A stretch of 64,000 nt of DNA from Botryllus schlosseri (lineage: Eukaryota), in the NCBI GenBank assembly GCA_051294905.1, contig CM119371.1, forward strand, positions 18,974,001 through 19,038,000, written 5' to 3'. The translations under genes were made by a program, and so were the position numbers. Positions 3,167-56,618 of this stretch are shown here, piece by piece (the stretch's first letter is position 1; each line of letters starts with the position of its first letter). Under the pieces are notes generated by a model that saw only the letters and a program-made list of their open reading frames with translations, was not told where the DNA came from and did not search any database.

Positions 3167-3172
3167 TTTTAT
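3167..3172 (-). promoter_or_regulatory. TATA-like upstream element at -29 to -24 of 5S (representative)
   Basis: ATAAAA at the same offset in type I, B and C flanks despite otherwise different flanks; GTAAAA in type A. Confidence 0.55.
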
Positions 3173-34061: not shown

Positions 34062-34179
34062 GCCTTCTACACCCGGTATTCCCAGCCGGTCACCCATGCA
34101 AGTACTAACCGGGCCCAATGTTGCTTGACTTCCGAGATCGGACGAGATCGGGTATATTCAACGTGGTATGGTCGTAGGC
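34062..34179 (-). rRNA. 5S rRNA variant type B (also at ~35085, 36612, 37635, 38658, 40698, 42741, 44767, 45789)
   Basis: 5S sequence with C26T, T40C, T114A (some copies also G61A) relative to type I; ends GGCTA-TTT. Confidence 0.85.
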
Positions 34180-34537
34180 AAGTGTGGTTACCAATTCTGA
34201 CGTTTTATGTTGACAATTTCCGTCGCCATGCTGTCGACGAGACGCCAGAAAAGCAGATTGTCTGATTGCGCTGGGGCATTTTCAACCCGTCTGCCAGCGT
34301 TCGAATATCGTTGGCATCCTGCTCTGTTCTTGTATCTTGTGGACAAACACACAATTAAGCTCTCGCTGTCAGAGTAGTTATTTTATTGTACTTTCTGTCA
34401 TGTCAAAACAGTACGAGAGTTTGATATAATGAAAATGTGTTAGGCCGATTACAATTCCAAATTTCGCGCGATAGTTCATTTGAAAATAAAGCACAGCAAT
34501 CGAATTGATCGAGTTTGTGCGGAAAAAAAATGCAAAA

Positions 34538-34656
34538 GCCTACATGCACCCGGTATTCCCAGCCGGTCACCCATGCAAGTACTAACTGAGCCCAACGCCG
34601 CTTAACTTCCGAGATCAGACGAGATCGGGTGTATTCAACGTGGTATGGTCGTAGGC
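34538..34656 (-). rRNA. 5S rRNA variant type A (also at ~35561, 37088, 38111, 39133, 40151, 41174, 42194, 43203, 44220, 45242)
   Basis: 5S sequence with C53T, A58G, A59G, C68T, G70A and TA>CAT at nt 111-112; ends GGC-TTTT. Confidence 0.85.
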
Positions 34657-36115
34657 GACAGTGGATACAATCTGTGCCGTTTTACGTGACATTTTTCGTT
34701 CATCTCAGGCGAAAAGTCGCCACGCTGCCAACGATGAGACGCCTGAAAAGCAGATTGTCTGATTGCGCCAAGGCACTTTCGGCCCAATAACTGGAAAGAA
34801 AAGTCTGCTAGCGGTCGAATATCATTGGCGTCCTGCTCTGTTCTTGTATCTGGTCAACAAACACACAAGTAAGCTCTCGCTGTCAGAGTAGTTATTTTAT
34901 TGCAATTTTCGTCATGTGAAAACAGCACGAGATTTCGATATAATGACAATGTGTTAGGCCTAGTATAACTACAAATTGAAATAAGCGGCGGCCAGCAAAT
35001 GATGACATTCATAGTTGTACGTAGGCCTACGTGCGCATACAAAACAGTTGCAAGCAAATTGATCGTGTTTGCGCGACAAAAATAGCCTTCTACACCCGGT
35101 ATTCCCAGCCGGTCACCCATGCAAGTACTAACCGGGCCCAATGTTGCTTGACTTCCGAGATCGGACGAGATCGGGTATATTCAACGTGGTATGGTCGTAG
35201 GCAAGTGTGGTTACCAATTCTGACGTTTTATGTTGACAATTTCCGTCGCCATGCTGTCGACGAGACGCCAGAAAAGCAGATTGTCTGATTGCGCTGGGGC
35301 ATTTTCAACCCGTCTGCCAGCGTTCGAATATCGTTGGCATCCTGCTCTGTTCTTGTATCTTGTGGACAAACACACAATTAAGCTCTCGCTGTCAGAGTAG
35401 TTATTTTATTGTACTTTCTGTCATGTCAAAACAGTACGAGAGTTTGATATAATGAAAATGTGTTAGGCCGATTACAATTCCAAATTTCGCGCGATAGTTC
35501 ATTTGAAAATAAAGCACAGCAATCGAATTGATCGAGTTTGTGCGGAAAAAAAATGCAAAAGCCTACATGCACCCGGTATTCCCAGCCGGTCACCCATGCA
35601 AGTACTAACTGAGCCCAACGCCGCTTAACTTCCGAGATCAGACGAGATCGGGTGTATTCAACGTGGTATGGTCGTAGGCGACAGTGGATACAATCTGTGC
35701 CGTTTTACGTGACATTTTTCGTTCATCTCAGGCGAAAAGTCGCCACGCTGCCAACGATGAGACGCCTGAAAAGCAGATTGTCTGATTGCGCCAAGGCACT
35801 TTCGGCCCAATAACTGGAAAGAAAAGTCTGCTAGCGGTCGAATATCATTGGCTTCCTGCTCTGTTCTTGTATCTGGTCAACAAACACACAAGTAAGCTCT
35901 CGCTGTCAGAGTAGTTATTTTATTGCACTTTTCGTCATGTGAAAACAGCACGAGATTTCGATATAATGACAATGTGTTAGGCCTAGTATAACTACAAATT
36001 GAAATAAGCGGCGGCCAGCAAATGATGACATTTATAGTTGTACGTAGGCCTACGTGCGCATACAAAACAGTTGCAATCTAATTGATCGAGTTTGTGCGAC
36101 AAAAATGCAAAAGCC

Positions 36116-36233
36116 GTCTACTACACACGGTATTCCCAGCCGGTCACCCATGCAAGTACTAACCGGGCCCAACGTTTCTTGACTTCCGAGATCGGACGAG
36201 ATCGGGTATATTCAACGTGGTATGGTCGTAGGC
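36116..36233 (-). rRNA. 5S rRNA variant type C, possibly non-functional (also at ~39688, 41729, 43758)
   Basis: Carries the type B C26T and T40C changes plus C57A, G107T and G117A, which each break a helix pair. Confidence 0.7.
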
Positions 36234-39200
36234 AAGTGTGGTTACCAATTCTGACGTTTTATGTGACAATTTCCGTCGACAGCCGCCAGAAAAGCAGATT
36301 GTCTGATTGCGCTGGGGCATTTTCAACCCGTCTGCCAGCGTTCGAATATCGTTGGCATCCTGCTCTGTTCTTGTATCTTGTGGACAAACACACAATTAAG
36401 CTCTCGCTGTCAGAGTAGTTATTTTATTGCACTTTTCGTCATGTGAAAACAGCACGAGATTTCGATATAATGACAATGTGTTAGGCCTAGTATAACTACA
36501 AATTGAAATAAGCGGCGGCCAGCAATTGATGACATTCATAATTGTACGTAGGCCTACGTGCGCATACAAAACAGTTGCAAGCAAATTGATCGTGTTTGCG
36601 CGACAAAAATAGCCTTCTACACCCGGTATTCCCAGCCGGTCACCCATGCAAGTACTAACCGGGCCCAACGTTGCTTGACTTCCGAGATCGGACGAGATCG
36701 GGTATATTCAACGTGGTATGGTCGTAGGCAAGTGTGGTTACCAATTCTGACGTTTTATGTTGACAATTTCCGTCGCCATGCTGTCGACGAGACGCCAGAA
36801 AAGCAGATTGTCTGATTGCGCTGGGGCATTTTCAACCCGTCTGCCAGCGTTCGAATATCGTTGGCATCCTGCTCTGTTCTTGTATCTTGTGGACAAACAC
36901 ACAATTAAGCTCTCGCTGTCAGAGTAGTTATTTTATTGTACTTTCTGTCATGTCAAAACAGTACGAGAGTTTGATATAATGAAAATGTGTTAGGCCGATT
37001 ACAATTCCAAATTTCGCGCGATAGTTCATTTGAAAATAAAGCACAGCAATCGAATTGATCGAGTTTGTGCGGAAAAAAAATGCAAAAGCCTACATGCACC
37101 CGGTATTCCCAGCCGGTCACCCATGCAAGTACTAACTGAGCCCAACGCCGCTTAACTTCCGAGATCAGACGAGATCGGGTGTATTCAACGTGGTATGGTC
37201 GTAGGCGACAGTGGATACAATCTGTGCCGTTTTACGTGACATTTTTCGTTCATCTCAGGCGAAAAGTCGCCACGCTGCCAACGATGAGACGCCTGAAAAG
37301 CAGATTGTCTGATTGCGCCAAGGCACTTTCGGCCCAGTAACTGGAAAGAAAAGTCTGCTAGCGGTCGAATATCATTGGCGTCCTGCTCTGTTCTTGTATC
37401 TGGTCAACAAACACACAAGCAAGCTCTCGCTGTCAGAGTAGTTATTTTATTGCACTTTTCGTCATGTGAAAACAGCACGAGATTTCGATATAATGACAAT
37501 GTGTTAGGCCTAGTATAACTACAAATTGAAATAAGCGGCGGCCAGCAAATGATGACATTCATAGTTGTACGTAGGCCTACGTGCGCTTACAAAACAGTTG
37601 CAAGCAAATTGATCGTGTTTGCGCGACAAAAATAGCCTTCTACACCCGGTATTCCCAGCCGGTCACCCATGCAAGTACTAACCGGGCCCAATGTTGCTTG
37701 ACTTCCGAGATCGGACGAGATCGGGTATATTCAACGTGGTATGGTCGTAGGCAAGTGTGGTTACCAATTCTGACGTTTTATGTTGACAATTTCCGTCGCC
37801 ATGCTGTCGACGAGACGCCAGAAAAGCAGATTGTCTGATTGCGCTGGGGCATTTTCAACCCGTCTGCCAGCGTTCGAATATCGTTGGCATCCTGCTCTGT
37901 TCTTGTATCTTGTGGACAAACACACAATTAAGCTCTCGCTGTCAGAGTAGTTATTTTATTGTACTTTCTGTCATGTCAAAACAGTACGAGAGTTTGATAT
38001 AATGAAAATGTGTTAGGCCGATTACAATTCCAAATTTCGCGCGATAGTTCATTTGAAAATAAAGCACAGCAATCGAATTGATCGAGTTTGTGCGGAAAAA
38101 AAATGCAAAAGCCTACATGCACCCGGTATTCCCAGCCGGTCACCCATGCAAGTACTAACTGAGCCCAACGCCGCTTAACTTCCGAGATCAGACGAGATCG
38201 GGTGTATTCAACGTGGTATGGTCGTAGGCGACAGTGGATACAATCTGTGCCGTTTTACGTGACATTTTTCGTTCATCTCAGGCGAAAAGTCGCCACGCTG
38301 CCAACGATGAGACGCCTGAAAAGCAGATTGTCTGATTGCGCCAAGGCACTTTCGGCCCAATAACTGGAAAGAAAAGTCTGCTAGCGGTCGAATATCATTG
38401 GCGTCCTGCTCTGTTCTTGTATCTGGTCAACAAACACACAAGTAAGCTCTCGCTGTCAGAGTAGTTATTTTATTGCAATTTTCGTCATGTGAAAACAGCA
38501 CGAGATTTCGATATAATGACAATGTGTTAGGCCTAGTATAACTACAAATTGAAATAAGCGGCGGCCAGCAAATGATGACATTCATAGTTGTACGTAGGCC
38601 TACGTGCGCATACAAAACAGTTGCAAGCAAATTGATCGTGTTTGCGCGACAAAAATAGCCTTCTACACCCGGTATTCCCAGCCGGTCACCCATGCAAGTA
38701 CTAACCGGGCCCAATGTTGCTTGACTTCCGAGATCGGACGAGATCGGGTATATTCAACGTGGTATGGTCGTAGGCAAGTGTGGTTACCAATTCTGACGTT
38801 TTATGTTGACAATTTCCGTCGCCATGCTGTCGACGAGACGCCAGAAAAGCAGATTGTCTGATTGCGCTGGGGCATTTTCAACCCGTCTGCCAGCGTTCGA
38901 ATATCGTTGGCATCCTGCTCCGTTCTTGTATCTTGTGGACAAACACACAATTAAGCTCTCGCTGTCAGAGTAGTTATTTTATTGTACTTTCTGTCATGTC
39001 AAAACAGTACGAGAGTTTGATATAATGAAAATGTGTTAGGCCGATTACAATTCCAAATTTCGCGCGATAGTTCATTTGAAAATAAAGCACAGCAATCGAA
39101 TTGATCGAGTTTGTGCGGAAAAAAATGCAAAAGCCTACATGCACCCGGTATTCCCAGCCGGTCACCCATGCAAGTACTAACTGAGCCCAACGCCGCTTAA

Positions 39201-42200
39201 CTTCCGAGATCAGACGAGATCGGGTGTATTCAACGTGGTATGGTCGTAGGCGACAGTGGATACAATCTGTGCCGTTTTACGTGACATTTTTCGTTCATCT
39301 CAGGCGAAAAGTCGCCACGCTGCCAACGATGAGACGCCTGAAAAGCAGATTGTCTGATTGCGCCAAGGCACTTTCGGCCCAATAACTGGAAAGAAAAGTC
39401 TGCTAGCGGTCGAATATCATTGGCTTCCTGCTCTGTTCTTGTATCTGGTCAACAAACACACAAGTAAGCTCTCGCTGTCAGAGTAGTTATTTTATTGCAC
39501 TTTTCGTCATGTGAAAACAGCACGAGATTTCGATATAATGACAATGTGTTAGGCCTAGTATAACTACAAATTGAAATAAGCGGCGGCCAGCAAATGATGA
39601 CATTTATAGTTGTACGTAGGCCTACGTGCGCATACAAAACAGTTGCAATCTAATTGATCGAGTTTGTGCGACAAAAATGCAAAAGCCGTCTACTACACAC
39701 GGTATTCCCAGCCGGTCACCCATGCAAGTACTAACCGGGCCCAACGTTTCTTGACTTCCGAGATCGGACGAGATCGGGTATATTCAACGTGGTATGGTCG
39801 TAGGCAAGTGTGGTTACCAATTCTGACGTTTTATGTGACAATTTCCGTCGACAGCCGCCAGAAAAGCAGATTGTCTGATTGCGCTGGGGCATTTTCAACC
39901 CGTCTGCCAGCGTTCGAATATCGTTGGCATCCTGCTCTGTTCTTGTATCTTGTGGACAAACACACAATTAAGCTCTCGCTGTCAGAGTAGTTATTTTATT
40001 GTACTTTCTGTCATGTCAAAACAGTACGAGAGTTTGATATAATGAAAATGTGTTAGGCCGATTACAATTCCAAATTTCGCGCGATAGTTCATTTGAAAAT
40101 AAAGCACAGCAATCGAATTGATCGAGTTTGTGCGGAAAAAAAATGCAAAAGCCTACGTGCACCCGGTATTCCCAGCCGGTCACCCACGCAAGTACTAACT
40201 GAGCCCAACGCCGCTTAACTTCCGAGATCAGACGAGATCGGGTGTATTCAACGTGGTATGGTCGTAGGCGACAGTGGATACAATCTGTGCCGTTTTACGT
40301 GACATTTTTCGTTCATCTCAGGCGAAAAGTCGCCACGCTGCCAACGATGAGACGCCTGAAAAGCAGATTGTCTGATTGCGCCAAGGCACTTTCGGCCCAA
40401 TAACTGGAAAGAAAAGTCTGCTAGCGGTCGAATATCATTGGCGTCCTGCTCTGTTCTTGTATCTGGTCAACAAACACACAAGTAAGCTCTCGCTGTCAGA
40501 GTAGTTATTTTATTGCACTTTTCGTCATGTGAAAACAGCACGAGATTTCGATATAATGACAATGTGTTAGGCCTAGTATAACTACAAATTGAAATAAGCG
40601 GCGGCCAGCAAATGATGACATTCATAGTTGTACGTAGGCCTACGTGCGCTTACAAAACAGTTGCAAGCAAATTGATCGTGTTTGCGCGACAAAAATAGCC
40701 TTCTACACCCGGTATTCCCAGCCGGTCACCCATGCAAGTACTAACCGGGCCCAACGTTGCTTGACTTCCGAGATCGGACGAGATCGGGTATATTCAACGT
40801 GGTATGGTCGTAGGTAAGTGTGGTTACCAATTCTGACGTTTTATGTTGACAATTTCCGTCGCCATGCTGTCGACGAGACGCCAGAAAAGCAGATTGTCTG
40901 ATTGCGCTGGGGCATTTTCAACCCGTCTGCCAGCGTTCGAATATCGTTGGCATCCTGCTCTGTTCTTGTATCTTGTGGACAAACACACAATTAAGCTCTC
41001 GCTGTCAGAGTAGTTATTTTATTGTACTTTCTGTCATGTCAAAACAGTACGAGAGTTTGATATAATGAAAATGTGTTAGGCCGATTACAATTCCAAATTT
41101 CGCGCGATAGTTCATTTGAAAATAAAGCTCAGCAATCGAATTGATCGAGTTTGTGCGGAAAAAAAATGCAAAAGCCTACATGCACCCGGTATTCCCAGCC
41201 GGTCACCCATGCAAGTACTAACTGAGCCCAACGCCGCTTAACTTCCGAGATCAGACGAGATCGGGTGTATTCAACGTGGTATGGTCGTAGGCGACAGTGG
41301 ATACAATCTGTGCCGTTTTACGTGACATTTTTCGTTCATCTCAGGCGAAAAGTCGCCACGCTGCCAACGATGAGACGCCTGAAAAGCAGATTGTCTGATT
41401 GCGCCAAGGCACTTTCGGCCCAATAACTGGAAAGAAAAGTCTGCTAGCGGTCGAATATCATTGGCGTCCTGCTCTGTTCTTGTATCTGGTCAACAAACAC
41501 ACAAGTAAGCTCTCGCTGTCAGAGTAGTTATTTTATTGCACTTTTCGTCATGTGAAAACAGCACGAGATTTCGATATAATGACAATGTGTTAGGCCTAGT
41601 ATAACTACAAATTGAAATAAGCGGCGGCCAGCAAATGATGACATTCATAGTTGTACGTAGGCCTACGTGCGCATACAAAACAGTTGCAATCTAATTGATT
41701 GAGTTTGTGCGACAAAAATGCAAAAGCCGTCTACTACACACGGTATTCCCAGCCGGTCACCTATGCAAGTACTAATCGGGCCCAACGTTTCTTGACTTCC
41801 GAGATCGGACGAGATCGGGTATATTCAACGTGGTATGGTCGTAGGCAAGTGTGATTACCAATTCTGACGTTTTATGTGACAATTTCCGTCGACAGCCGCC
41901 AGAAAAGCAGATTGTCTGATTGCGCTGGGGCATTTTCAACCCGTCTGCCAGCGTTCGAATATCGTTGGCATCCTGCTCTATGTTCTTGTATCTTGTGGAC
42001 AAACACACAATTAAGCTCTCGCTGTCAGAGTAGTTATTTTATTGTACTTTCTGTCATGTCAAAACAGTACGAGAGTTTGATATAATGAAAATGTGTTAGG
42101 CCGATTACAATTCCAAATTTCGCGCGATAGTTCATTTGAAAATAAAGCACAGCAATCGAATTGATCGAGTTTGTGCGGAAAAAAAATGCAAAAGCCTACA

Positions 42201-45200
42201 TGCACCCGGTATTCCCAGCCGGTCACCCATGCAAGTACTAACTGAGCCCAACGCCGCTTAACTTCCGAGATCAGACGAGATCGGGTGTATTCAACGTGGT
42301 ATGGTCGTAGGCGACAGTGGATACAATCTGTGCCGTTTTACGTGACATTTTTCGTTCATCTCAGGCGAAAAGTCGCCACGCTGCCAACGATGAGACGCCT
42401 GAAAAGCAGATTGTCTGATTGCGCCAAGGCACTTTCGGCCCAATAACTGGAAAGAAAAGTCTGCTAGCGGTCGAATATCATTGGCGTCCTGCTCTGTTCT
42501 TGTATCTGGTCAACAAACACACAAGTAAGCTCTCGCTGTCAAAGTAGTTATTTTATTGCACTTTTCGTCATGTGAAAACAGCACGAGATTTCGATATAAT
42601 GACAATGTGTTAGGCCTAGTATAACTACAAATTGAAATAAGCGGCGGCCAGCAAATGATGACATTCATAGTTGTACGTAGGCCTACGTGCGCATACAAAA
42701 CAGTTGCAAGCAAATTGATCGTGTTTGCGCGACAGAAATAGCCTTCTACACCCGGTATTCCCAGCCGGTCACCCATGCAAGTACTAACCGGGCCCAACGT
42801 TGCTTGACTTCCGAGATCGGACGAGATCGGGTATATTCAACGTGGTATGGTCGTAGGCAAGTGTGGTTACCAATTCTGACGTTTTATGTGACAATGTCCG
42901 TCGACAGCCGCCAGAAAAGCAGATTGTCTGATTGCGCTGGGGCATTTTCAACCCGTCTGCCAGCGTTCGAATATCGTTGGCATCCTGCTCTGTTCTTGTA
43001 TCTTGTGGACAAACACACAATTAAGCTCTCGCTGTCAGAGTAGTTATTTTATTGTACTTTCTGTCATGTCAAAACAGTACGAGAGTTTGATATAATGAAA
43101 ATGTGTTAGGGCGATTACAATTCCAAATTTCGCGCGATAGTTCATTTGAAAATAAAGCACAGCAATCGAATTGATCGAGTTTGTGCGGAAAAAAATGCAA
43201 AAGCCTACATGCACCCGGTATTCCCAGCCGGTCACCCATGCAAGTACTAACTGAGCCCAACGCCGCTTAACTTCCGAGATCAGACGAGATCGGGTGTATT
43301 CAACGTGGTATGGTCGTAGGCGACAGTGGATACAATCTGTGCCGTTTTACGTGACATTTTTCGTTCATCTCAGGCGAAAAGTCGCCTCGCTGCCAACGAT
43401 GAGACGCCTGAAAAGCAGATTGTCTGATTGCGCCAAGGCACTTTCGGCCCAATAACTGGAAAGAAAAGTCTGCTAGCGGTCGAATATCATTGGCGTCCTG
43501 CTCTGTTCTTGTATCTGGTCAACAAACACACAAGTAAGCTCTCGCTGTCAGAGTAGTTATTTTATTGCACTTTTCGTCATGTGAAAACAGCACGAGATTT
43601 CGATATAATGACAATGTGTTAGGCCTAGTATAACTACAAATTGAAATAAGCGGCGGCCAGCAAATGATGACATTTATAGTTGTACGTAGGCCTACGTGCG
43701 CATACAAAACAGTTGCAATCTAATTGATCGAGTTTGTGCGACAAAAATGCAAAAGCCGTCTACTACACACGGTATTCCCAGCCGGTCACCCATGCAAGTA
43801 CTAACCGGGCCCAACGTTTCTTGACTTCCGAGATCGGACGAGATCGGGTATATTCAACGTGGTATGGTCGTAGGCAAGTGTGGTTACCAATTCTGACGTT
43901 TTATGTGACAATGTCCGTCGACAGCCGCCAGAAAAGCAGATTGTCTGATTGCGCTGGGGCATTTTCAACCCGTCTGCCAGCGTTCGAATATCGTTGGCAT
44001 CCTGCTCTGTTCTTGTATCTTGTGGACAAACACACAATTAAGCTCTCGCTGTCAGAGTAGTTATTTTATTGTACTTTCTGTCATGTCAAAACAGTACGAG
44101 AGTTTGATATAATGAAAATGTGTTAGGGCGATTACAATTCCAAATTTCGCGCGATAGTTCATTTGAAAATAAAGCACAGCAATCGAATTGATCGAGTTTG
44201 TGCGGAAAAAAATGCAAAAGCCTACATGCACCCGGTATTCCCAGCCGGTCACCCATGCAAGTACTAACTGAGCCCAACGCCGCTTAACTTCCGAGATCAG
44301 ACGAGATCGGGTGTATTCAACGTGGTATGGTCGTAGGCGACAGTGGATACAATCTGTGCCGTTTTACGTGACATTTTTCGTTCATCTCAGGCGAAAAGTC
44401 GCCACGCTGCCAACGATGAGACGCCTGAAAAGCAGATTGTCTGATTGCGCCAAGGCACTTTCGGCCCAATAACTGGAAAGAAAAGTCTGCTAGCGGTCGA
44501 ATATCATTGGCGTCCTGCTCTGTTCTTGTATCTGGTCAACAAACACACAAGTAAGCTCTCGCTGTCAAAGTAGTTATTTTATTGCACTTTTCGTCATGTG
44601 AAAACAGCACGAGATTTCGATATAATGACAATGTGTTAGGCCTAGTATAACTACAAATTGAAATAAGCGGCGGCCAGCAAATGATGACATTCATAGTTGT
44701 ACGTAGGCCTACGTGCGCATACAAAACAGTTGCAAGCAAATTGATCGTGTTTGCGCGACAGAAATAGCCTTCTACACCCGGTATTCCCAGCCGGTCACCC
44801 ATGCAAGTACTAACCGGGCCCAACGTTGCTTGACTTCCGAGATCGGACGAGATCGGGTATATTCAACGTGGTATGGTCGTAGGCAAGTGTGGTTACCAAT
44901 TCTGACGTTTTATGTTGACAATTTCCGTCGCCATGCTGTCGACGAGACGCCAGAAAAGCAGATTGTCTGATTGCGCTGGGGCATTTTCAACCCGTCTGCC
45001 AGCGTTCGAATATCGTTGGCATCCTGCTCTGTTCTTGTATCTTGTGGACAAACACACAATTAAGCTCTCGCTGTCAGAGTAGTTATTTTATTGTACTTTC
45101 TGTCATGTCAAAACAGTACGAGAGTTTGATATAATGAAAATGTGTTAGGCCGATTACAATTCCAAATTTCGCGCGATAGTTCATTTGAAAATAAAGCACA

Positions 45201-46265
45201 GCAATCGAATTGATCGAGTTTGTGCGGAAAAAAATGCAAAAGCCTACATGCACCCGGTATTCCCAGCCGGTCACCCATGCAAGTACTAACTGAGCCCAAC
45301 GCCGCTTAACTTCCGAGATCAGACGAGATCGGGTGTATTCAACGTGGTATGGTCGTAGGCGACAGTGGATACAATCTGTGCCGTTTTACGTGACATTTTT
45401 CGTTCATCTCAGGCGAAAAGTCGCCACGCTGCCAACGATGAGACGCCTGAAAAGCAGATTGTCTGATTGCGCCAAGGCACTTTCGGTCCAATAACTGGAA
45501 AGAAAAGTATGCTAGCGGTCGAATATCATTGGCGTCCTGCTCTGTTCTTGTATCTGGTCAACAAACACACAAGTAAGCTCTCGCTGTCAGAGTAGTTATT
45601 TTATTGCACTTTTCGTCATGTGAAAACAGCACGAGATTTCGATATAATGACAATGTGTTAGGCCTAGTATAACTACAAATTGAAATAAGCGGCGGCCAGC
45701 AAATGATGACATTCATAGTTGTACGCAGGCCTACGTGCGCATACAAAACAGTTGCAAGCAAATTGATCGTGTTTGCGCGACAAAAATAGCCTTCTACACC
45801 CGGTATTCCCAGCCGGTCACCCATGCAAGTACTAACCGGGCCCAACGTTGCTTGACTTCCGAGATCGGACGAGATCTGGTATATTCAACGTGGTATGGTC
45901 GTAGGCAAGTGTGGTTACCAATTCTGACGTTTTATGTTGACAATTTCCGTCGCCATGCTGTCGACGAGACGCCAGAAAAGCAGATTGTCTGATTGCGCTG
46001 GGGCATTTTCAACCCGTCTGCCAGCGTTCGAATATCGTTGGCATCCTGCTCTGTTCTTGTATCTTGTGGACAAACACACAATTAAGCTCTCGCTGTCAGA
46101 GTAGTTATTTTATTGTACTTTCTGTCATGTCAAAACAGTACGAGAGTTTGATATAATGAAAATGTGTTAGGCCGATTACAATTCCAAATTTCGCGCGATA
46201 GTTCATTTGAAAATAAAGCACAGCAATCGAATTGATCGAGTTTGTGCGGAAAAAAAAATGCAAAA

Positions 46266-46274
46266 GCCTACATG
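46266..46274 (-). pseudogene. 3'-terminal 9 nt of a type A 5S gene cut by the Polinton
   Basis: Normal type A 3' flank and aaaa-gcctacatg, then an abrupt switch to agtagt instead of cacccgg. Confidence 0.88.
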
Positions 46275-46560
46275 AGTAGTGTATTCGATCGCTCTGGGGG
46301 TGGCAGGGGCTCTTATGGGCGGGGTGGTGACGGGCTGGAAAACCGGGGGTGGTGAGCGGCTCTTATTTCTTATGGCGGGGGTGGTGAGCGGCTATTGCGT
46401 CTTATGGCGGGGGTGGTGAGCGGCTCTTATTTCTTATGGCGGGGGTGGCGAGCGGCTGGAAAACCGGGGGTGGCGAGCGGCTCTTATTTCTTATGGCGGG
46501 GGTGGCGAGCTAACGTTTTCGTCTTATGGCGGGGGTGGCGAGCGGCTATTGCGTCTTGTG
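46275..46560 (+). repeat. Polinton terminal region (probable TIR) with ~9 G-rich subrepeats
   Basis: Starts with AGTAGT. Core GGGGGTGG(T/C)GAGCGGC recurs every 25-33 bp. The partner TIR is not visible, so TIR length is unknown. Confidence 0.8.
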
Positions 46561-47121
46561 GTCGAACGGTAACCCTTTTCAGTATAGACTGCGGTCGCAA
46601 GCGGCTTCGTTGTTGGCATGTCGTACTTCGTGTTGAATATGTATCAAGTAAATAGTCATGTGAATGAACCTTTGTTAATGTGTATATCGTCGTGTATTAT
46701 TACACGGTCTCTACTGATTCACCATGTGTTCTTATGGATGCGTTCGTGATTCGCACTTTCAACCATCTCTCGCGTGGTGTTGAATAGTCACCAACAATAA
46801 CCGCGCAAACGGAAACGTGGCTTGCAAGAGGATTAAGCAGTGCGACCTATATTTCGAATGACCTGCGCGCAGAATTGTTTCACGGCCAACCGCTACTATC
46901 GAATATTACACTAGACCAGTCAGTGCGAAATAGTTTGATCGTAAATTATGATATATGATGTCGTAGTTTAGTCGTGTCAAATGACCGATCGTGTTCTCTT
47001 TCCTCGCTATTGATTGCTAGCTGAATAATACTTTCGGATTATTCCGCTGTTTCGCGCCTACAGAATAGTCTGCTGTTCACAGTCACAACAAGAATCACAA
47101 GTATACACATTTACACATTCG

Positions 47122-47127
47122 TTTATT
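47122..47127 (-). terminator. Polyadenylation signal closing the Polinton structural gene cluster
   Basis: AATAAA overlapping the protease stop codon, followed by a GT-rich tract on the minus strand. Confidence 0.6.
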
Positions 47128-47569
47128 ACTCTGAAATCAAACTCTTCACAAAAGCACGTACAATCGTATCATTCACTTTTTTATCATCGCCAAAATTATC
47201 CAAGTATTCCTCGGTTGAAAACCCTTGAGCTCTTTTTATCAAGAATGCGATAGCATGATCTCCACACACATTCGAAGTTTTACTCTGTAACTGTTTGCCA
47301 GTCACAGAAAATTCATCCGGCTCCAGGAATTCGATTATCTGAGGTTTTAGTGGTCCGAAGCCTAGCGAATCATGAAAATGAGTATCGTCATCTCTGTATA
47401 TAGACACCCAGTGAGACCCAGGCAAACTCGACTCATCGTAATTAATGGTGATAGCGAATTTTCCGCTAGTTGGTTTCTTCGGTAACTGATCTACTGGATA
47501 AGTTCCTAGATATAGACTTTGTGTGTCAGGATGGTTATAGAGAATATCATTGATCTCAGACGTATTCAT
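47126..47569 (-). CDS. Adenain-like (C5) cysteine protease
   Basis: GSHW, HDSLG, LQ and VCGDH motifs. The likely start MNTSEI overlaps the MCP stop (ATGA). Confidence 0.9.
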   Translation of the reverse strand: MNTSEINDILYNHPDTQSLYLGTYPVDQLPKKPTSGKFAITINYDESSLPGSHWVSIYRDDDTHFHDSLGFGPLKPQIIEFLEPDEFSVTGKQLQSKTSNVCGDHAIAFLIKRAQGFSTEEYLDNFGDDKKVNDTIVRAFVKSLISE

Positions 47570-48530
47570 ATTTCGACGACTTGTCTTTTTTGATTCAGCT
47601 GTAGAAGATGTTGAAACTCCTTCAAACATAACAAGGTTACGGAGGTTGGTAAAGGCTTCGACGTAGTCAAAACCAGATGCACAGTTCCCGTCTTATGAAG
47701 TTGATAACATCCCAAACTATTATCAGGTGTCAAATCAAACACAAAAAGAGTGTACCCCTTGACATAATCTTCGCGAGAAATATTCAAAGGTGCCTCGGAT
47801 TCCCAGCGACCTGTCTGAGAGAATAGTGTCATATAACCTTCGAGTCCGCCATGTTTATCAAAATCGAAATGAAATTCGCGTCCGTTAATTTGTCGCCCGT
47901 CCACACTTAACGAAAGATTTTGAACATCAAAGTGTTTAAAGTTGAATGGATTTTTGGCTCGAACACCGTTAAATGTCGTGGTCTCGACTAAACCAATTAC
48001 GATCTTCTTTGGCATGGTGCCGCTAACTAACTCTCTATCAATTTTCGACAAGCCCGCCGCGAATGTATGAGTCGACATTTGTAAGCGTATCCAGGGGTAC
48101 TTGGCAGTATTCTTCTGTAATACAGACTTGTGTGCTAAGCTTACACTTTCAGCGATCTTCATCTGTTTGACATACACCTCCATTTCGAGTAAAACAATTT
48201 GTACATCTTCCACATCACCAAGCAGACAGAAATTATCTTCGTTACGTGTAAATTTTAATTTCATGTCGACATTATCCAACATACATCTAGACTGTTCAAA
48301 AAGACCCATTCGAATTTTTCCGATCAACTCTAGCGGAGTGCTGTTTTTTGTAAGGTCTTTTCGTTTAACATATCCAGTATTCGCTGCACCAAGAACATCC
48401 ATAGATCCAGCGACATCTTTATAAAAACCTTGGCCTTGCACAAAACTCTCCGAGGCCCCGTGAGTATCATTCAACAACCGAGAGATATAAGCTTTGTACG
48501 CATGACAATTATCCGAATTTGTGATAACCT
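47566..48530 (-). pseudogene. Polinton major capsid protein (PY), 3' part
   Basis: AYKAYISRLLN, KNPFNFKHF and GYTLFVFDLTPD motifs. Joins the 5' part in frame when the Gypsy element is removed. Confidence 0.9.
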
Positions 48531-48843
48531 TATAGCGTGCTCTGTCGTGGGCGCGCGTTCTTCTTGGTCCGCGGCTCGATAAGTCAAAGTAGACAAGTCA
48601 GCATTGCTCTTTTAATAAAACAACTAAAACATGACGATGCTCGTCCGACGGATACTAAAAGACGACTGGCTCGGACGGTGACTAAAAGCGACTGACCCGG
48701 ACGGTGACTAAAAGCGACTGACCCGGACGGTGACTAAAAGCGACTGCTCGTAAAAAGAGTACAACACAAGACCTAGCCTAGCAGTAACATAATCAGTGAT
48801 CAGCGGGGATAATTACAGGTTAATCATGGAGCGGTACGCTACA
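48531..48843 (-). repeat. 3' LTR
   Basis: Direct repeat of 53484-53796. Ends TGTAGCG...CGCTATA; contains a 26-bp repeat x3 (48672-48746). Confidence 0.95.
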
Positions 48844-49170
48844 AGGGCCCCCCTGGTTGGTAAAAGCTTTAGGATATAATATGGACACTACATCAGTCGG
48901 CGATTCAAGTATATATACGAATGAAGGACGCTACCAGACATGGTAGTGATTACAGATTAGGTTTCGAATACGAGTTCAATTCTAATGGTATAACGAAAGC
49001 AAGGTGGGTGTGGTGGTGAAACTATAACGGCAGAATGATTCGTTCAGCGATAAAGATGCACTTTACAATGTGAAAATCTCGATGAGACAAGATTTCTAGA
49101 ACATACAGGAGATGAAAAAGCCTGTTGCGAAAAAATACAAGCGATGGTGGTAAAGTGAATGAGTAACACA

Positions 49171-50350
49171 CTAAATATCCATTTTAAATACTGGTGACAA
49201 CACAAAATCATTCAAGTGATGTGGAGTACGAATAATACGGCCACTGGCCGACACAGAGTTTGTTCGCGAAGTGTCAACTTGCGGTGGCGTCAATTCGTCG
49301 AGACGCTCGATGGGAAGTCTGCCAGGTATAAGCCTGTCGGTTGAGGCGTCATAAGGACCCTTATTCGTTAGAATTGTGAAACATTTATGAGTGCGTTTTA
49401 AAACTTGATGCGGACCAGAATAAACCGGATCGAGTGATCTACGATGACCATCTATCCGCAAGAAAACGTGCGTGCAATTATTCAAATCGTTCGGGACATA
49501 AGATTTTTGATTCGAATGAAACCTAGTCGGCATCTCACCCACGGCTGAGAAAAAGCGTTTCAATTCACCAACGTAGTTGAAATCATTAGCGTTATTACCA
49601 CTGGAAGAAGGATTGACTAATTGACCGGGTAGTCGAAGGGAAGTGCCATACACAAGCTCTGCTGGTGAATAACCGAGATCTTCCTTGACAGAACATCGAA
49701 GCCCTAAAACAATTAAGCCTAAGTGATGATACCAATTATGAGGACTTTCTAATGCGCGGAGGGAGGCTTTCAAAGTTCTGTTATAGCGTTCGACAAGAGA
49801 ATTTTGCTCCGGCTTATACGCCAAGGTTTTGATGTGGAAAATACCCAAGAATTGCATATACTGAGTCCATTCAAGCGAGGTAAACTGACTTCCTCGGTCG
49901 GTTATTATTTTACGGGGTGAGCCGAAATTTGACACCCAGCCAAAACTAAACGCATCAATAACAGTTTGAGCACGAATGTCCATCATGGGAACACATACAG
50001 GCCAGCGAGTATAGCGATCAACACACATCAAAATATACGAGTAACCGCAACTATTCGGGAGTGACAATATGTCGACGTTAACCGTATGAAAGCGTTCGGA
50101 AGGGACGGGAAGATTGGTAATTGCAGTTCGAGTATGCCTATGAATCTTCGATCGTTGACACTGCTGACAATGACGGACGAAATCGTTCACATGTCGTTTC
50201 ATGCCAGGCCATACATAACGTTCAGCTATCAATTTAGTGGTCGCGCGTATACCGGGGTGCGAAATATCATGCACACTGTGCATTACAGTCTCTCGAAGTG
50301 CCGCAGGAACGTAGGGACGTTCTCTACCAGGCAAAGACTTGTCGAAGATG
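49171..50350 (-). CDS. Gypsy integrase (frameshifted from the rest of pol)
   Basis: HHCC finger (HDISH...CQQC), DDE (VDI, TDRGSQF, VERYNRTLK), GPY-like YSGPH. Confidence 0.88.
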
Positions 50351-52289
50351 ATATAGGATCGTTGAACTCTTCGAAATGTACTTCCGCGAGATGCAAGGAG
50401 TGGTCATCGGCGTTAGCGAGGAGTTCCTTGAGCTCTGCATCGTCTTTCTGGGCTTCTAGTAATGCTTCCGCTGTGATGGGAACAGTGTTCGGAAAAATCG
50501 CGTTCACCTCGAGTCTGGAGAGAGTATCCGCAGCCGTGTTCAGAGTCCCTTTGATGTGTCTAACGTCGTCGGTATATTCCGTGATAAATTCCAACTGTCT
50601 TGCTTGACGATCCAGAAGTCTGTCGGTTGGATTCCTTAACGATTTTACAAGGCCGTCATTATCGGTAATCAGTTGAAATTTCCTACCCTTTAGCTGGACA
50701 TGAAAATGCTTGATTGCTGAATAAGCCGCTAAAAGCTCGCGATCAAATGCGGAGTACTTGCGCTGTGTCGGGTTCAAGGTTTTCGAGAAGAATGCTAAGG
50801 GGGACCACGAATCATCAGATTTCTGTTGCAAAACAGCTCCAATTCCGACTTGACTAGCGTCTACCACGAGTGACAGTTCGGCATCATGAATCGGGTGGAA
50901 TAATATGACATTATCGGACAGTTCGGTCTTGATGCGTTCGAAAGCAGTGTTAGCACTGTCTGTCCATTTGACACGATCACGCTTATTCGATGCTGCATTG
51001 GCCACGTCATACAGTGGCTTCAAAATCTCGGCACACTTTTTGACAAAACGGTGGTAATAGCAGACTAGTCCAAGGAATGAACGTAGTTGTTTTACATTTT
51101 CAGGACGAGGATAGTTAGAGATCACTTCAACCTTTGAGGGCAAGGGACTAATTCCCCTTGCATTAACAAGGTGACCTAAAAATTCGATTTCTTCCTTACC
51201 GAAACTGCACTTATCGACATTTATGACCAGTCCGAACTTACGAAACCTTGAAAACAAATTCGTCAATGTTGCCATGTGCTCTTCCTCAGTACGAGTCGCA
51301 ATTAAAATGTCGTCTAAAAACACAAAAATATTGTCTAGTCCTTCGGTTACTTCAGATATAAAACGGCTAAAAGTACTACAAGCGTTGGTCAAGCCGAACA
51401 TCATCGTCGTTGGTTGGAATAGTCCTTCGGGACAAATAAAAGCAGCCTTCTCTTGATCGTCTGGATGAAGAGGAATTTGATGGTACGCCTTCGCTAAGTC
51501 AACTTTGCTAAAAACATTACAGTTCGACAGTTCATCGGTAAAATCACGCAGAAATGGGACAGGCCATCGATCCTTGACCGTCTGATTGTTTAATTTCCTA
51601 TAGTCGACACAGATTCTAATATCATCTATGCCCTTTGGTACGACAGTAATGGGAGAGGCGAAAGGCGATTTTGAGCGAATGATTACACCGGACTTCAACA
51701 TCTCTTGCAATCGATTCTTCACCTTCTGTTTCAAATGGGGCGGCAATGGGCGACAGCGAGAACGAGTGGGACATCCGTTAGTAATAATTCGATGTACAGT
51801 ACCGTGCTTAGCTCGTACTGCTGCATTCCGTGGAATGGTAATGTCGTTGAATCTCGACAAAAGATCTACATATGGTGTATTGTGATCAGGCGCTATAAAG
51901 TTCAGCCCGCGAACTACTGGATTACACTTCCAGCCCGGAATGAAACCTCCTGAAACAGTATCAATCAGACAATTGCTCCTCAAATCAACGACGAGAGAAA
52001 ATCGCTCAATAAAATCAGCCCCCAATATGGCAATGTGTGTATCGGCAATATAGAATCGAAATCCATACTTGTGTCTATCGGAGAACTCGATCCGTAAATA
52101 TCTCGTTCCAAACGTCGCAATTTTTGATCCATTTGTAGCGTACAGATTTGGTCCTGGTTTATTCTTGAAAACGTTACTTGAAGTCGGTAGAACAGAAACG
52201 GATGCTCCTGTATCGACGAGGAAAATCTGCCCTGAAATCGAATCTCGCACATGCAATAAAGGGTTTTGACATTCAGAGTTGGCATTCAC
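50283..52289 (-). CDS. Gypsy pol: aspartic protease, reverse transcriptase, RNase H
   Basis: LVDTGA, RICVDYRKLN, DLAKAYHQI, MMFGL, FLDD, DAS, RELLA, TDN and ADTLSR motifs. Confidence 0.93.
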   Translation of the reverse strand: MNANSECQNPLLHVRDSISGQIFLVDTGASVSVLPTSSNVFKNKPGPNLYATNGSKIATFGTRYLRIEFSDRHKYGFRFYIADTHIAILGADFIERFSLVVDLRSNCLIDTVSGGFIPGWKCNPVVRGLNFIAPDHNTPYVDLLSRFNDITIPRNAAVRAKHGTVHRIITNGCPTRSRCRPLPPHLKQKVKNRLQEMLKSGVIIRSKSPFASPITVVPKGIDDIRICVDYRKLNNQTVKDRWPVPFLRDFTDELSNCNVFSKVDLAKAYHQIPLHPDDQEKAAFICPEGLFQPTTMMFGLTNACSTFSRFISEVTEGLDNIFVFLDDILIATRTEEEHMATLTNLFSRFRKFGLVINVDKCSFGKEEIEFLGHLVNARGISPLPSKVEVISNYPRPENVKQLRSFLGLVCYYHRFVKKCAEILKPLYDVANAASNKRDRVKWTDSANTAFERIKTELSDNVILFHPIHDAELSLVVDASQVGIGAVLQQKSDDSWSPLAFFSKTLNPTQRKYSAFDRELLAAYSAIKHFHVQLKGRKFQLITDNDGLVKSLRNPTDRLLDRQARQLEFITEYTDDVRHIKGTLNTAADTLSRLEVNAIFPNTVPITAEALLEAQKDDAELKELLANADDHSLHLAEVHFEEFNDPISSSTSLCLVENVPTFLRHFERL

Positions 52290-53251
52290 TGATGAAAATT
52301 GTTGCGATCCCTCACGAGGCCTCCGTCTAAAAAAGGGCGATTTGAAGAGTAGGAACAGGGTGGACGGCAGTTTCGAGCTCGATCACCGAATTTATCATGA
52401 TAAAAGCACAATTGATTCGTACCGCGCAGATGAGCAAATCGAGTTACCTCGCCACGTGTCTCTGAACGGTTTGACAGCGTCCGAAAAGCTGGTCGATCAC
52501 CTCTAAAAGGTTCACGGCGAGGAACGGTACTACGATTGAAATTGTGCGAGCTTTGTCCGCCCGATGCAGGTAAATCTCGTGCCGAAGGTATCGCCTTCAA
52601 TTCCCTGACCTCTCGAGCTATCGATTGAACAGTTAGTTGCAATTCATCTAATTGATTTGTGGGAGGATAACTGTAATGATTTGAAACCACACGAGGAGAA
52701 GCGCGAGTGTATATACTATCAGCTCTTAGGGCAAGCTGTTCCACGGTATCGTCTACATGTGACGACAATATCCCAGCAATATGATCTGGCAAATGGTGAA
52801 GGAACGTTTCCTTTAAATAACAGTCGGAACCTGGTGTGTTTGATAGAGCCCCCATTGCATTCCGCAATTTTTTCAGAAGTTCAGAGGGTTTTAAATCTCT
52901 ACAGCGATCACTATAAAGTTCCTTAACACGGTCTCGTAAGGGAACAGCGTACTCACGCATCAGAAGATCACGCAATACTTCGTAGCAGTCGTCGTCTTCT
53001 GGGGCAGGTAACTTCAATCGAATCGATTCGAGCTGCTTGCCGTCCAGACATCTCAGAACGTGAAAATACTTCGCCGCAGAGTCCGTAACCCCATAACTGA
53101 CAAATCCGGCTTCCACCGAAACAAACCACGACTCCGGCGAATGGGACCAGAAATTGACCACCGGTGGCGGCATCCTCGGGGCACCAGTGAAATTGGCCGA
53201 GCTGGCAATATCTTCCACCGATTGTTGTCGTCGTCGTCGTCGAGAAGACAT
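52286..53251 (-). CDS. Gypsy gag
   Basis: FWSHSPESWF N-terminal motif and CFYHDKFGDRARNCRPPC knuckle; lies between PBS and pol. Confidence 0.9.
   Translation of the reverse strand: MSSRRRRRQQSVEDIASSANFTGAPRMPPPVVNFWSHSPESWFVSVEAGFVSYGVTDSAAKYFHVLRCLDGKQLESIRLKLPAPEDDDCYEVLRDLLMREYAVPLRDRVKELYSDRCRDLKPSELLKKLRNAMGALSNTPGSDCYLKETFLHHLPDHIAGILSSHVDDTVEQLALRADSIYTRASPRVVSNHYSYPPTNQLDELQLTVQSIAREVRELKAIPSARDLPASGGQSSHNFNRSTVPRREPFRGDRPAFRTLSNRSETRGEVTRFAHLRGTNQLCFYHDKFGDRARNCRPPCSYSSNRPFLDGGLVRDRNNFHQ
52328..52334 (-). other. Putative -1 ribosomal frameshift heptamer U UUU UUA for gag-pol
   Basis: Gag frame reads CCT TTT TTA; the -1 frame is open from here into pol. Confidence 0.75.
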
Positions 53252-53323
53252 TTCAAATACAGCAGAGAGTGAGCAAGGGATTCGAGTCGGCTAGTGCAAG
53301 TCGGGTTCGAATCGGCTGGCGAT

Positions 53324-53472
53324 ATCACGTCGGCTAGGAAGGCTAGCGAAATCACGTCGGGGTTTCAAGTCGGCTGGCGAAATCACGTCGGCTAGGATGA
53401 CTAGCGAAATCACGTCGGCTAGGATAGCTAGCGAGATCACGTCGGCTAGGAAGGCTAGCGAGATCACGTCGG
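53324..53472. repeat. 27-bp tandem repeat in Gypsy leader, each unit containing ATCACGTCGG
   Basis: Copies at 53324, 53351, 53382, 53409, 53436 and 53463. Confidence 0.9.
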
Positions 53473-53480
53473 GGTCACCA
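53463..53480 (-). other. Primer-binding site for tRNA-Trp
   Basis: TGGTGACCCCGACGTGAT, 3 nt inside the 5' LTR; complement of the eukaryotic tRNA-Trp 3' end, same PBS as avian leukosis/sarcoma viruses. Confidence 0.9.
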
Positions 53481-53483
53481 AAA

Positions 53484-53796
53484 TATAGCGTGCTCTGTCG
53501 TGGGCGCGCGTTCTTCTTGGTCCGCGGCTCGATAAGTCAAAGTAGACAAGTCAGCATTGCTCTTTTAATAAAACAACTAAAACATGACGATGCTCGTCCG
53601 ACGGATACTAAAAGACGACTGGCTCGGACGGTGACTAAAAGCGACTGACCCGGACGGTGACTAAAAGCGACTGACCCGGACGGTGACTAAAAGCGACTGC
53701 TCGTAAAAAGAGTACAACACAAGACCTAGCCTAGCAGTAACATAATCAGTGATCAGCGGGGATAATTACAGGTTAATCATGGAGCGGTACGCTACA
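53484..53796 (-). repeat. 5' LTR
   Basis: Direct repeat of 48531-48843, followed by the PBS. Confidence 0.95.
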
Positions 53797-54107
53797 ACCT
53801 CATTTGAAATAGTTACATCGATTTGTTTGAAAAGAGAATCCAACATGTTATTGACCAGACCCACTTGTGTATCGTTTGCTAAATCAGTTCCATCGCGTTT
53901 AGTGAGCTTCAAACGTAATCTCAAGAACGTGTTTTGTAGATCCATATATCGATCCGTCCTTGGTAATTGTACTTCCATGACATTACCTAAACTATGGGGT
54001 TTGACGACGACATATTGCGATTCCTCAATACTGGTTTGTGTGTGGGGTATACTAAATATGTTTAATCCAGAGTTATGACATTCTCGGGAACCCGCATGCA
54101 TCAACAT
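53797..54107 (-). pseudogene. Polinton major capsid protein (PY), 5' part
   Basis: LNIFSIPHTQTSIE, YMDLQNTFL and VNNMLDSLFKQIDV motifs typical of the Polinton MCP N-terminus. Confidence 0.9.
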
Positions 54108-54112
54108 AGTTC

Positions 54113-54484
54113 TTAGTCGAATATATCCTGTTGTTTACGACGACGTTTGGGTGAAGTGTTCTTTGACTTTGTTTTTTTCCTTTTTATAGCTTTTGGGGTT
54201 AAAATTTTATCAATTACTCGACCGCCAGCTTGTTTACTTCTCTTGACAACACTAGACTTGATCGAGTTACCCCGTAATAGATCTCTCGCTATTTCACCTC
54301 CAGTCCGTAACAATTGACCACCAGCGTATTTTGCAATAGGTGTCACTAAACGACCGAGTGATTTAAACAAACTCCCGATACCGGAGCCGGCTTGAACTCC
54401 ACCACTAAAATATCCATAACCATCACCTGTCTGGTTATAATGACGATGGACAGAATGATGATCACACGTGAAAACAACTTTCAT
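54113..54484 (-). CDS. Basic core/membrane-active virion protein candidate
   Basis: QAGSG-IGSLFKSLGRLVTP amphipathic segment and K/R-rich tail ending DIFD; immediately upstream of MCP. Confidence 0.7.
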   Translation of the reverse strand: MKVVFTCDHHSVHRHYNQTGDGYGYFSGGVQAGSGIGSLFKSLGRLVTPIAKYAGGQLLRTGGEIARDLLRGNSIKSSVVKRSKQAGGRVIDKILTPKAIKRKKTKSKNTSPKRRRKQQDIFD

Positions 54485-54876
54485 AATCGCTTCCTAATGT
54501 TAAATGTAGCTTGCAATGAACGACTTATTATATTTATAGGTTCCCCAAACTCATCCCTGAGGTAAAGACATACAGAATCTACAACATCTTTTGAAACAGG
54601 GAAATAATACGGATTTGTCGCTACCCAATTATGCGTGACATCACCAGGTGTCAGCGGTATAACTCGTAATAAACGCGCTAACACATCTCCAAGTAAGTGA
54701 GGGTTAATAATATCGCAATACACAAACAAATATTGACCAATCGCCGGTTCGGTTAAAGTGAAATCGATCTCCATGAGGGCTAATTCACAATATCTTGTCG
54801 GGATGTTGTTGATGGTGAGTAGTCTGTGTTCAAAATCAACACCAAGCATAGAGGTGGTTAACGTCACTATTTTCAT
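54481..54876 (-). CDS. Minor capsid (penton/PX-like) paralog 3, 131 aa
   Basis: ELALMEI...LFVYCDII...GD...LLRVI...PYYFPV...YLRDEFG. Confidence 0.78.
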   Translation of the reverse strand: MKIVTLTTSMLGVDFEHRLLTINNIPTRYCELALMEIDFTLTEPAIGQYLFVYCDIINPHLLGDVLARLLRVIPLTPGDVTHNWVATNPYYFPVSKDVVDSVCLYLRDEFGEPINIISRSLQATFNIRKRL

Positions 54877-55544
54877 CGTGCGTGGAGTGTCAATGTGGTC
54901 TCTATATCATGTACTAACTGACCGTATTGATCCCGGATGGTGATTTTTATATCGCGGATGTGGTTAATCGATACTGGGAAATAAAAAGGTTTTTCATATA
55001 CAACTTCTTGTCTCATACACGTCTCGTTATTTACTTGGATCACACGAAGCAATTGACTCATGTAATCACCCACCGGATGATGTCGTAGTACATTGATATA
55101 CACAAAAAGATATCTGAGGTGGGGTTGAGTTGGTTTAGGTTTGATCGACGTGACATTACATACTGGTGTCGACACTTGATCAACTACACTGAAATAATTC
55201 GTGAATATATCCGTGGGGTGGAGTGTGATACGTTTCGAGTAACGAATTCGGAAAAGTTCATCGTTGATTCTTTCGGTGAAACAGTGTTTGAAACTGTCAG
55301 ATAATATTCTTCGCGTCAACTCGAGGTTGTTTGCATAATTCCCAAGTGGTGTTAGGTACGCTTCTACTATTCGATCTTTCTCATTATGTAGCTCCCAGAG
55401 TGCTTGATCACGATTGATTATAATTCGATCAAGAGATTCACTGACAAAACTCATATCCATCAACGCAAGCTCATTACAAATAATTTCATTCGGTAACACC
55501 ACCGAGAATTCACCTTGGGTGCCAGACAACGTGATGTAACTCAT
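54873..55544 (-). CDS. Minor capsid (penton/PX-like) paralog 2, 223 aa
   Basis: YITL...ELALMDM...LFVYIN...GD...LLRVI...PFYFPV...IRDQYG. Confidence 0.78.
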   Translation of the reverse strand: MSYITLSGTQGEFSVVLPNEIICNELALMDMSFVSESLDRIIINRDQALWELHNEKDRIVEAYLTPLGNYANNLELTRRILSDSFKHCFTERINDELFRIRYSKRITLHPTDIFTNYFSVVDQVSTPVCNVTSIKPKPTQPHLRYLFVYINVLRHHPVGDYMSQLLRVIQVNNETCMRQEVVYEKPFYFPVSINHIRDIKITIRDQYGQLVHDIETTLTLHAR

Positions 55545-56371
55545 ATTGAATCAACAGCTCTACGACGGAAGCGTAGGGTTACTGTCACTGGTGCTTTTCG
55601 AAATTTAATAGGGTTGCCAGCTGCATCACGTAGATAAATTCGTATTGTTCTAAAATTGTTTCTCGCTAAAGCAAAGAAGTATGGTTTTGGGAATATGTTG
55701 ATTTGGTTTTCATTCGGTTTAGCGGTTACAGTAACCACCCGTAAAAGTTGTTGTAGTTTGTTACCGTGCGGTCTTGGTTGTATCAGATCACAATACACAT
55801 AAACCTTATCAATCCGTTCCAGCTTTACCGCAGGTGTAAATATAAATTCTACCACTCCGCGGCGACGAGATACAACGCGTCTAAATGTTATTGTATCCAA
55901 CACAGAACCAAGCGGTATCAGTCCGTAAGGCTCGGGTGAATCATGCGTGGTGCGGGGTATGTGTTTGGCGCTAGAGTCTGCGGTGTCAGTATTTATGGAT
56001 GCAGCTCGCTTGGGTCTTTTTTTACTCGTGACTAATCTTCTGAATGTGATTCTAAAGTCTCCGAATCCTTGTAAAATGAAAATGTCGCCCAAGTAATATT
56101 TCTCGTACGATTCTAACATTTCACCGATGCTGTAATACGAACCTTCGGGAATATAATACCGTTCGGTGTATCCATTTGCATCGACAAATCCAAAACCTAT
56201 ACTTTTCGCTGTCACTTCAATTCGCGGTTGGAAATCATGTGGGAAGGTCAGCTCACATAATCCTAGCTCATGGCGATTCATTTCTAATTCTTTGTAAAGT
56301 TCCGTTTGAAAATCTGTGCTAGTATTCGGAAATTTATCCAAACTCGCGTTCGAAGGTAGAGTCAACAACAT
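55541..56371 (-). CDS. Minor capsid (penton/PX) paralog 1, 276 aa
   Basis: MLLTLPSNAS...ELGLCELTFP...VYVYCDLI...LLRVV...PYFF...YLRDAAG; start placed at ATG 56371. Confidence 0.83.
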   Translation of the reverse strand: MLLTLPSNASLDKFPNTSTDFQTELYKELEMNRHELGLCELTFPHDFQPRIEVTAKSIGFGFVDANGYTERYYIPEGSYYSIGEMLESYEKYYLGDIFILQGFGDFRITFRRLVTSKKRPKRAASINTDTADSSAKHIPRTTHDSPEPYGLIPLGSVLDTITFRRVVSRRRGVVEFIFTPAVKLERIDKVYVYCDLIQPRPHGNKLQQLLRVVTVTAKPNENQINIFPKPYFFALARNNFRTIRIYLRDAAGNPIKFRKAPVTVTLRFRRRAVDSI

Positions 56372-56384
56372 TTTATTGTTTCTT

Positions 56385-56618
56385 TCAACATATACGATGA
56401 GGTGATGGATTCGGTAATAAATACCCAAGTGAAGAAGACAGTAGCGTTAAATATATCTCACGATCCACCCCGACAGAAATTTGATATAATGAAAACACGA
56501 TTACACACACTAACATACAAATCTGTACAATAAACACAATCTGGTTTTTCAGACTGTTCGAGACTTGACCCATGCGAGATGAGTCGGAATCAGAATCCAT
56601 AGTTTGGTTGAACAACAT
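56385..56618 (-). CDS. Small two-helix membrane protein
   Basis: Two hydrophobic stretches ending LLSSSLGYLLPNP; packs tightly between integrase and penton. Confidence 0.65.
   Translation of the reverse strand: MLFNQTMDSDSDSSRMGQVSNSLKNQIVFIVQICMLVCVIVFSLYQISVGVDREIYLTLLSSSLGYLLPNPSPHRIC

Follow-up and report, generated by a model that had tools for sequence, protein, structure and literature searches.

The window, the whole 64-kb stretch of DNA analysed here, contains a 5S rDNA tandem array (2647..46274, minus strand; Rfam, TRF and scripts) joined directly to a Polinton, which runs past the window edge at 64000 and has its far end beyond it. Rfam identifies 91 intact 5S genes, every one on the minus strand, laid out as 67 type I genes in 462-bp units followed by a mosaic of nine type B, 11 type A and four type C genes. 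Gene fragments are found at both array edges, a 35-nt piece at the left and a 9-nt piece at the right. Positions 1-2646 hold a LINE on the minus strand, with a zinc-knuckle ORF1 (1141-2523) and an APE-type ORF2 from 1172 leftwards. The LINE meets the array directly after nt 35 of a 5S gene, so the array block is bounded by a LINE at the left and by the Polinton at the right.

The four gene types can be distinguished by sequence. Type A has several internal differences and by its Rfam span has one extra base near the 3′ end, and type C carries changes in the last helix and has the lowest Rfam scores (82-89 bits). One possibility is that the presence of four types in one array reflects somatic versus oocyte-type sets; folding of three of the types taught us nothing further. 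Between 13651 and 33171, minor type I variants recur in a pattern, e.g., six copies sharing a 3′ change that usually sit two units after another variant. Judged from the sequence, this patterning suggests higher-order repeats formed by recent unequal crossing over.

Beyond the last type B gene, the array runs on in register into a type A unit and then breaks. As read from the sequence, it stops at 46274, right after GCCTACATG, and AGTAGT begins at 46275. Because all 5S genes are on the minus strand, the letters retained are a gene 3′ tail, namely the last 9 nt (gene nt 111-119) of a split type A gene (46266..46274, minus strand), with the T-run terminator of that gene at 46262-46265 (minus strand), both assigned by sequence and unit comparison. 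The break thus lies inside 5S gene sequence, only 9 nt from the 3′ end of the type A gene. The hexamer TACATG at 46269-46274 (plus strand) corresponds to gene nt 111-116 of 119 and is the predicted left copy of a 6-bp target site duplication (TSD), following the 6-bp rule given in the accessible part of PMC8097293. The element's first bases (46275..46280, plus strand) form the Polinton end motif (AGT)2, which is the commonest end motif among vertebrate Mavericks according to the same part of that paper. Comparison of array units showed that the element's A replaces a C of the intact gene, making the breakpoint exact and free of microhomology. There are no N letters in the 64-kb window. The 490 bp left of the junction differ from the closest other type A units (six of 11) by 1-3 mismatches and a longer A run, and the remaining five units differ in their upstream neighbour or carry small deletions. 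The original prediction that the array ends mid-gene with AGTAGT directly next to it is therefore correct in both letters and coordinates in this window.

Downstream of the junction lies the gene set of a Polinton: protease, capsid (split), rve-chromo integrase, ATPase and protein-primed family B DNA polymerase (pPolB). Repeat scans detected subterminal G-rich repeats with a period of 25-33 nt (46296..46561, plus strand) inside the presumed terminal inverted repeat. An adenain-type cysteine protease of 167 aa (47126..47629, minus strand) was recognised with an Atlas feature score of 0.96, to clusters in which 25-62% of members carry PF00770; the ORF had no Pfam-A match. The major capsid protein gene is present on the minus strand as a C-terminal piece (47566..48530) and an N-terminal piece (53797..54107), covering approximately residues 107-424 and 4-108, respectively, of a 426-aa homologue. 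Its assignment as a double jelly-roll capsid comes from Atlas scores of 0.96-0.98 to clusters in which 10-82% of members carry PF21738, with an Atlas recognition of 2236 that is slightly below the 2300 mark. The capsid has 85 homologues and no match among PDB sequences.

Four further ORFs of 123, 131, 223 and 295 aa (54113..56428, minus strand) have no Pfam or PHROG matches and, by position, are likely the PW and minor-capsid-type genes. They are followed by a 356-aa open frame for an rve integrase with a C-terminal chromodomain (56628..57698, minus strand; Pfam), two small ORFs of 132 and 115 aa without family matches (57634..58376, minus strand) and a 203-aa P-loop ATPase (58410..59021, minus strand). 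The ATPase ORF has PHROG ATPase matches and weak Pfam matches to AAA_14 (below cut-off) and RNA_helicase; from its position it would be the packaging ATPase, the family matches being weak. A 1239-codon open frame (59652..63371, minus strand) encodes the pPolB, with a DNA_pol_B_2 match (E 5.7e-7) above the Pfam cut-off. By every feature with a clear result (pPolB, rve integrase, capsid, protease and left-end motif) the element qualifies as a Polinton. The polymerase gene is flanked on either side by short direct repeats rich in A and T (48 nt at 92%, 24 nt at 83% and 34 nt at 82%), which lie ~4.2 kb apart at 59458-59547 and 63638-63733 and are possibly shared regulatory sequence.

The Polinton capsid gene is broken in two by a Gypsy-type LTR retrotransposon (48531..53796, minus strand), defined by its LTRs, TSD and ORFs. 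The two 313-nt LTRs (48531-48843 and 53484-53796) are identical and the element has a 4-bp TSD, indicating that the insertion is recent. Gag-like, RT-RNase H and integrase ORFs are found in separate frames. The LTRs end TG...TA on the minus strand, and a minisatellite of 27/58 nt is located at 53300-53476 within the Gypsy element.

Because AGTAGT is also present in 25 array spacers, the hexamer alone is not diagnostic of a Polinton end. If the break were random, the next six letters would by arithmetic match one or other of the two common Maverick end hexamers (motifs from PMC8097293) in ~2/4096 cases, and Polinton genes lie beyond the break; the join of array to Polinton is not coincidental. 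This bears out the earlier claim of a Polinton end inside 5S coding sequence, both (AGT)2 at 46275 and the gene set beyond it being in place. It is highly improbable that the join is secondary or artificial, through misassembly or through a deletion after insertion that left no 5S beyond the far end: the end motif starts at the very base after the break, microhomology and N gaps are both absent, and the final unit of the array keeps to the B-A alternation. What such a reading has in its favour is that the far end lies outside the window and that no contig bridges the junction among the 32 of 22209 pieces listed. Those pieces and the 24 of 521 loose ends listed contain nothing at the terminus (46274-46275), which carries no weight either way. 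No second copy of the element's first 17 nt is present in the window, with up to three mismatches allowed.

Sequencing runs that hold part of 45907-48500 account for 20 rows from 12 studies. Contigs of four runs (of 24 listed) were mapped to 45907-47700, of which 368 bp are 5S spacer, and in all four numerous diverged contigs (19841, 232, 1529 and 528 records) cover the whole stretch. The covered stretch has 103 variable places, and some forms skip parts of the terminal region. These diverged contigs, variable places and deleted forms place the element in a polymorphic, many-copy family, which implies many chances to land. Single-contig depths of the element interior versus the B/A/C-type spacer (3474 versus 18304 in run X18, 54 versus 194 in X6, and 11-24 versus 54 in X5) hint at a sizeable family, depth not being equal to copy number. 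Run X6 has no cover at 46249 with the element end covered, and such a hole proves nothing. Within 46327-47122, contigs in several runs skip, e.g., from 46420 to 46722 or from 46690 to 46963, and contigs in several runs leave the terminal region at 46663, 46690 and 46893. These skips and exits may stem from relatives with deletions, or mark where the far terminal repeat ends on its inner side.

At the junction position, the type I genes have TACTAC (61) or TACTTC (6), the nine type B genes TTCTAC, the four type C genes TACTAC, and the type A genes TACATG (10) or TACGTG (1). The original prediction held that TACATG occurs only in type A; this is true among the 91 intact genes, the 11 occurrences in the array being ten intact type A genes and the junction. 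The restriction to type A carries no information, since a TSD consists of whatever the struck gene holds. Moreover, 27 of 114 type A gene hexamers do not occur in types I, B and C (one representative each), making a private site a one-in-four event. The junction hexamer is present in 10 of 91 intact genes and is thus a target sequence not conserved among copies. A single gene among the 92 copies in the window was struck, in a stretch where the four 5S types differ. A site private to 11 of 92 gene copies would be the opposite of what is expected for the target of a 5S-specific element; the target choice of Dada elements, as described in the accessible part of PMC8869645, rests on common primary sequence.

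A chance model was calculated with all values assumed (50, 200 or 1000 copies, arrays of 44 kb to 1 Mb, genomes of 0.3-1 Gb). Under these assumptions 5S coding DNA would be hit at least once with a probability of 0.001-0.04 for 50 copies, 0.002-0.15 for 200 and 0.01-0.57 for 1000; such a hit is improbable if the family is small and nothing unusual if it is large. With coding sequence making up 25% of the array, random insertion into the array will often strike a gene, and scanning very many windows will pick out such insertions post hoc.

We conclude, with a probability of roughly 0.7, that a standard Polinton/Maverick landed once in the 3′ end of a type A 5S gene without recognising its sequence. 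In this family, a DDE integrase would cut the two host strands at positions 6 bp apart and attach the (AGT)2 ends there, with repair then duplicating the 6 host bp; a 6-bp duplication upon Polinton integration is described in the available text of PMC8097293. Sequence presumably mattered little in the choice of site, which the chromodomain perhaps biased towards methyl-lysine chromatin. In vertebrate Mavericks, the information content drops off into host DNA with no target sequence (PMC8097293, accessible part), and sequence-specific integration was not found for mavirus-like elements in the accessible part of PMC8547959. The copy may persist through array redundancy, the loss of one gene among 90 or more being cheap. 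The split 5S gene is probably dead because its terminator is now >17 kb away. The Gypsy element broke the capsid gene later. Restoration of the last 5S helix by the element end was considered and found uninformative, as two of three replaced positions would be pairable if the far end equals the near end, a result with a chance of ~1 in 4 (arithmetic), and the first T4 run lies ~240 nt inside the element.

The integrase matches rve (E 2.5e-16) and Chromo (E 4.6e-9) in Pfam. Residues D84, D144 and E178 are invariant in 14/14 aligned integrases and are the likely catalytic residues, and no added domain was seen in the 14-sequence alignment. Among the best 120 of 737 homologues, the closest integrase outside the element's own family is 57% identical, indicating a new member within the Polinton group, and one match at 98% is probably a sister copy. 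The chromodomain matches the methyl-lysine readers CBX2, CDYL and HP1. Its aromatics 319, 340 and 343 align opposite CBX2 aromatics that make up the binding cage. The domain may bias the element towards methylated chromatin. The rve and Chromo pair is found in 115 of the best 120 of 737 homologues, and a domain this near to universal among relatives cannot single out 5S; the suggestion that a chromodomain integrase aids 5S targeting is accordingly unsupported, the domain being standard. A chromodomain is also described for Spodoptera Maverick integrases in the accessible part of PMC5803895. It is distinctly unlikely that the insertion reflects a general preference for silent repeat chromatin exerted through the chromodomain, with the 5S array as one such region. 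The likeness to CBX2, CDYL and HP1 speaks for such a preference, as does the heterochromatin bias of LTR elements with a chromodomain (as cited in the available parts of PMC6839031 and PMC5803895). Nearly all relatives share the domain, however, so that this family is not singled out, and the preference overlaps with a single landing without sequence recognition, the reading we favour.

Other 5S-Polinton junctions were sought in contig collections. The element's terminal 20-mer matched nothing in either viral or metagenome contigs, and these collections are therefore blind to the flanks of the element's family. A general pattern search for the 5S internal motif followed within 30 nt by an end hexamer returned 17 metagenome loci, none of which matched any of 12 Polinton proteins. 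Rfam, applied to 15 of the 17, gave one full 5S match (L009); the two loci omitted repeat the matched text of L005/L011 and L009, and the remaining metagenome loci look like 5S-fragment repeats. At L009 (2931-3048) and L012, 5S-like sequence becomes tRNA-looking after the internal promoter motif, and probably represents a SINE that either inserted into a 5S gene or arose from one. Searching viral contigs with the 5S motif alone gave six loci, chance matches by eye and without a Polinton protein match. A protease scan of viral contigs returned 0 loci, and an integrase-profile scan returned five loci at 26-34% identity with no RNA family match. No second 5S-Polinton junction was thus found in metagenome or viral contigs, collections that lack the element's own end. 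Neither a target-specific Polinton nor a second 5S-Polinton junction was found in the literature searched, which did not extend to Repbase or most subscription papers. PMC12220804 was rejected as a precedent, its accessible part describing a 5S gene carried inside a PLV and not a PLV inserted into 5S, and PMC12859917 offered nothing pertinent.

These searches bear on whether the element's family prefers 5S genes, at or near gene nt 110-116, and also lands elsewhere, as Pokey does for 28S. We consider this unlikely. Were it so, the likeliest mechanism would be tethering to the RNA polymerase III complex by position, immediately beyond the internal promoter, and not by reading TACATG. The clean junction within the coding sequence, with a far side that would retain 116 of 119 nt, is consistent with such a preference; DDE transposons can evolve 5S targeting, as Dada-5S illustrates (PMC8869645, accessible part), and a chance insertion is improbable if the family has few copies. 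Against this stand a single junction beside 91 adjacent intact genes that were not struck, a site private to one gene variant, an integrase without a special domain, and the absence of a second case from the viral and metagenome contig searches. It is correspondingly doubtful that this would be the first Polinton lineage aiming at 5S, with array chromatin or the polymerase III complex positioning its integrase. There is likewise little probability that the lineage cuts in the last helix, downstream of the internal promoter, to keep 116 of 119 nt ahead of the element. The proposed 5S-targeting Polinton is therefore unsupported, since neither the private hexamer nor the standard chromodomain lends it support and there is one junction only. 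The caution in the original prediction that a single junction cannot separate targeting from chance stands, with one junction among 92 gene copies.

As a chance insertion, the locus is of minor significance: a 5S array block that has a young Polinton, itself carrying a nested Gypsy, at one of its ends. Should targeting be demonstrated, it would represent a virus-like element with a 15-20 kb capacity integrating into a multicopy safe harbour, and would offer a direct test of the function of the Polinton integrase chromodomain.

Comparison with the animal Polintons/Mavericks in the accessible part of PMC8097293 demonstrates a shared (AGT)2 end, protease, major capsid, rve integrase, ATPase and pPolB. 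A length of >17 kb including the nested element is a further likeness, and the core genes are all on one strand, as in Xenopus tropicalis. In contrast to those Mavericks, the integrase gene here lies between the minor-capsid-type ORFs and the ATPase, the integrase ends in a chromodomain (a word absent from the paper's text), and the capsid gene is in two pieces. A C-terminal integrase chromodomain, proposed to affect target choice, is also present in Spodoptera Sf Maverick 1 and 2; compared by description, neither 5S nor another target is described for them in the accessible part of PMC5803895.

The 5S gene is a known target of Dada-5S and of the LINE Mutsu (available parts of PMC8869645 and PMC3706591, respectively), both of which insert within the 5S coding sequence, as the Polinton did here. 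By eye, the Dada-5S target lies a few bases from the junction, its plus-strand start in an intact gene being ~9 nt right of the break. As far as those sources describe them, Dada-5S and Mutsu are families that have inserted repeatedly at a single conserved site, using enzymes unrelated to the Polinton integrase, whereas the Polinton here is known from a single junction in a variable stretch and has a retroviral-type integrase. Pokey, a DNA transposon that prefers 28S and has copies elsewhere too (PMC3706591, accessible part), provides a model for partial rDNA preference, although both its target gene and its transposase differ from those of the Polinton described here.
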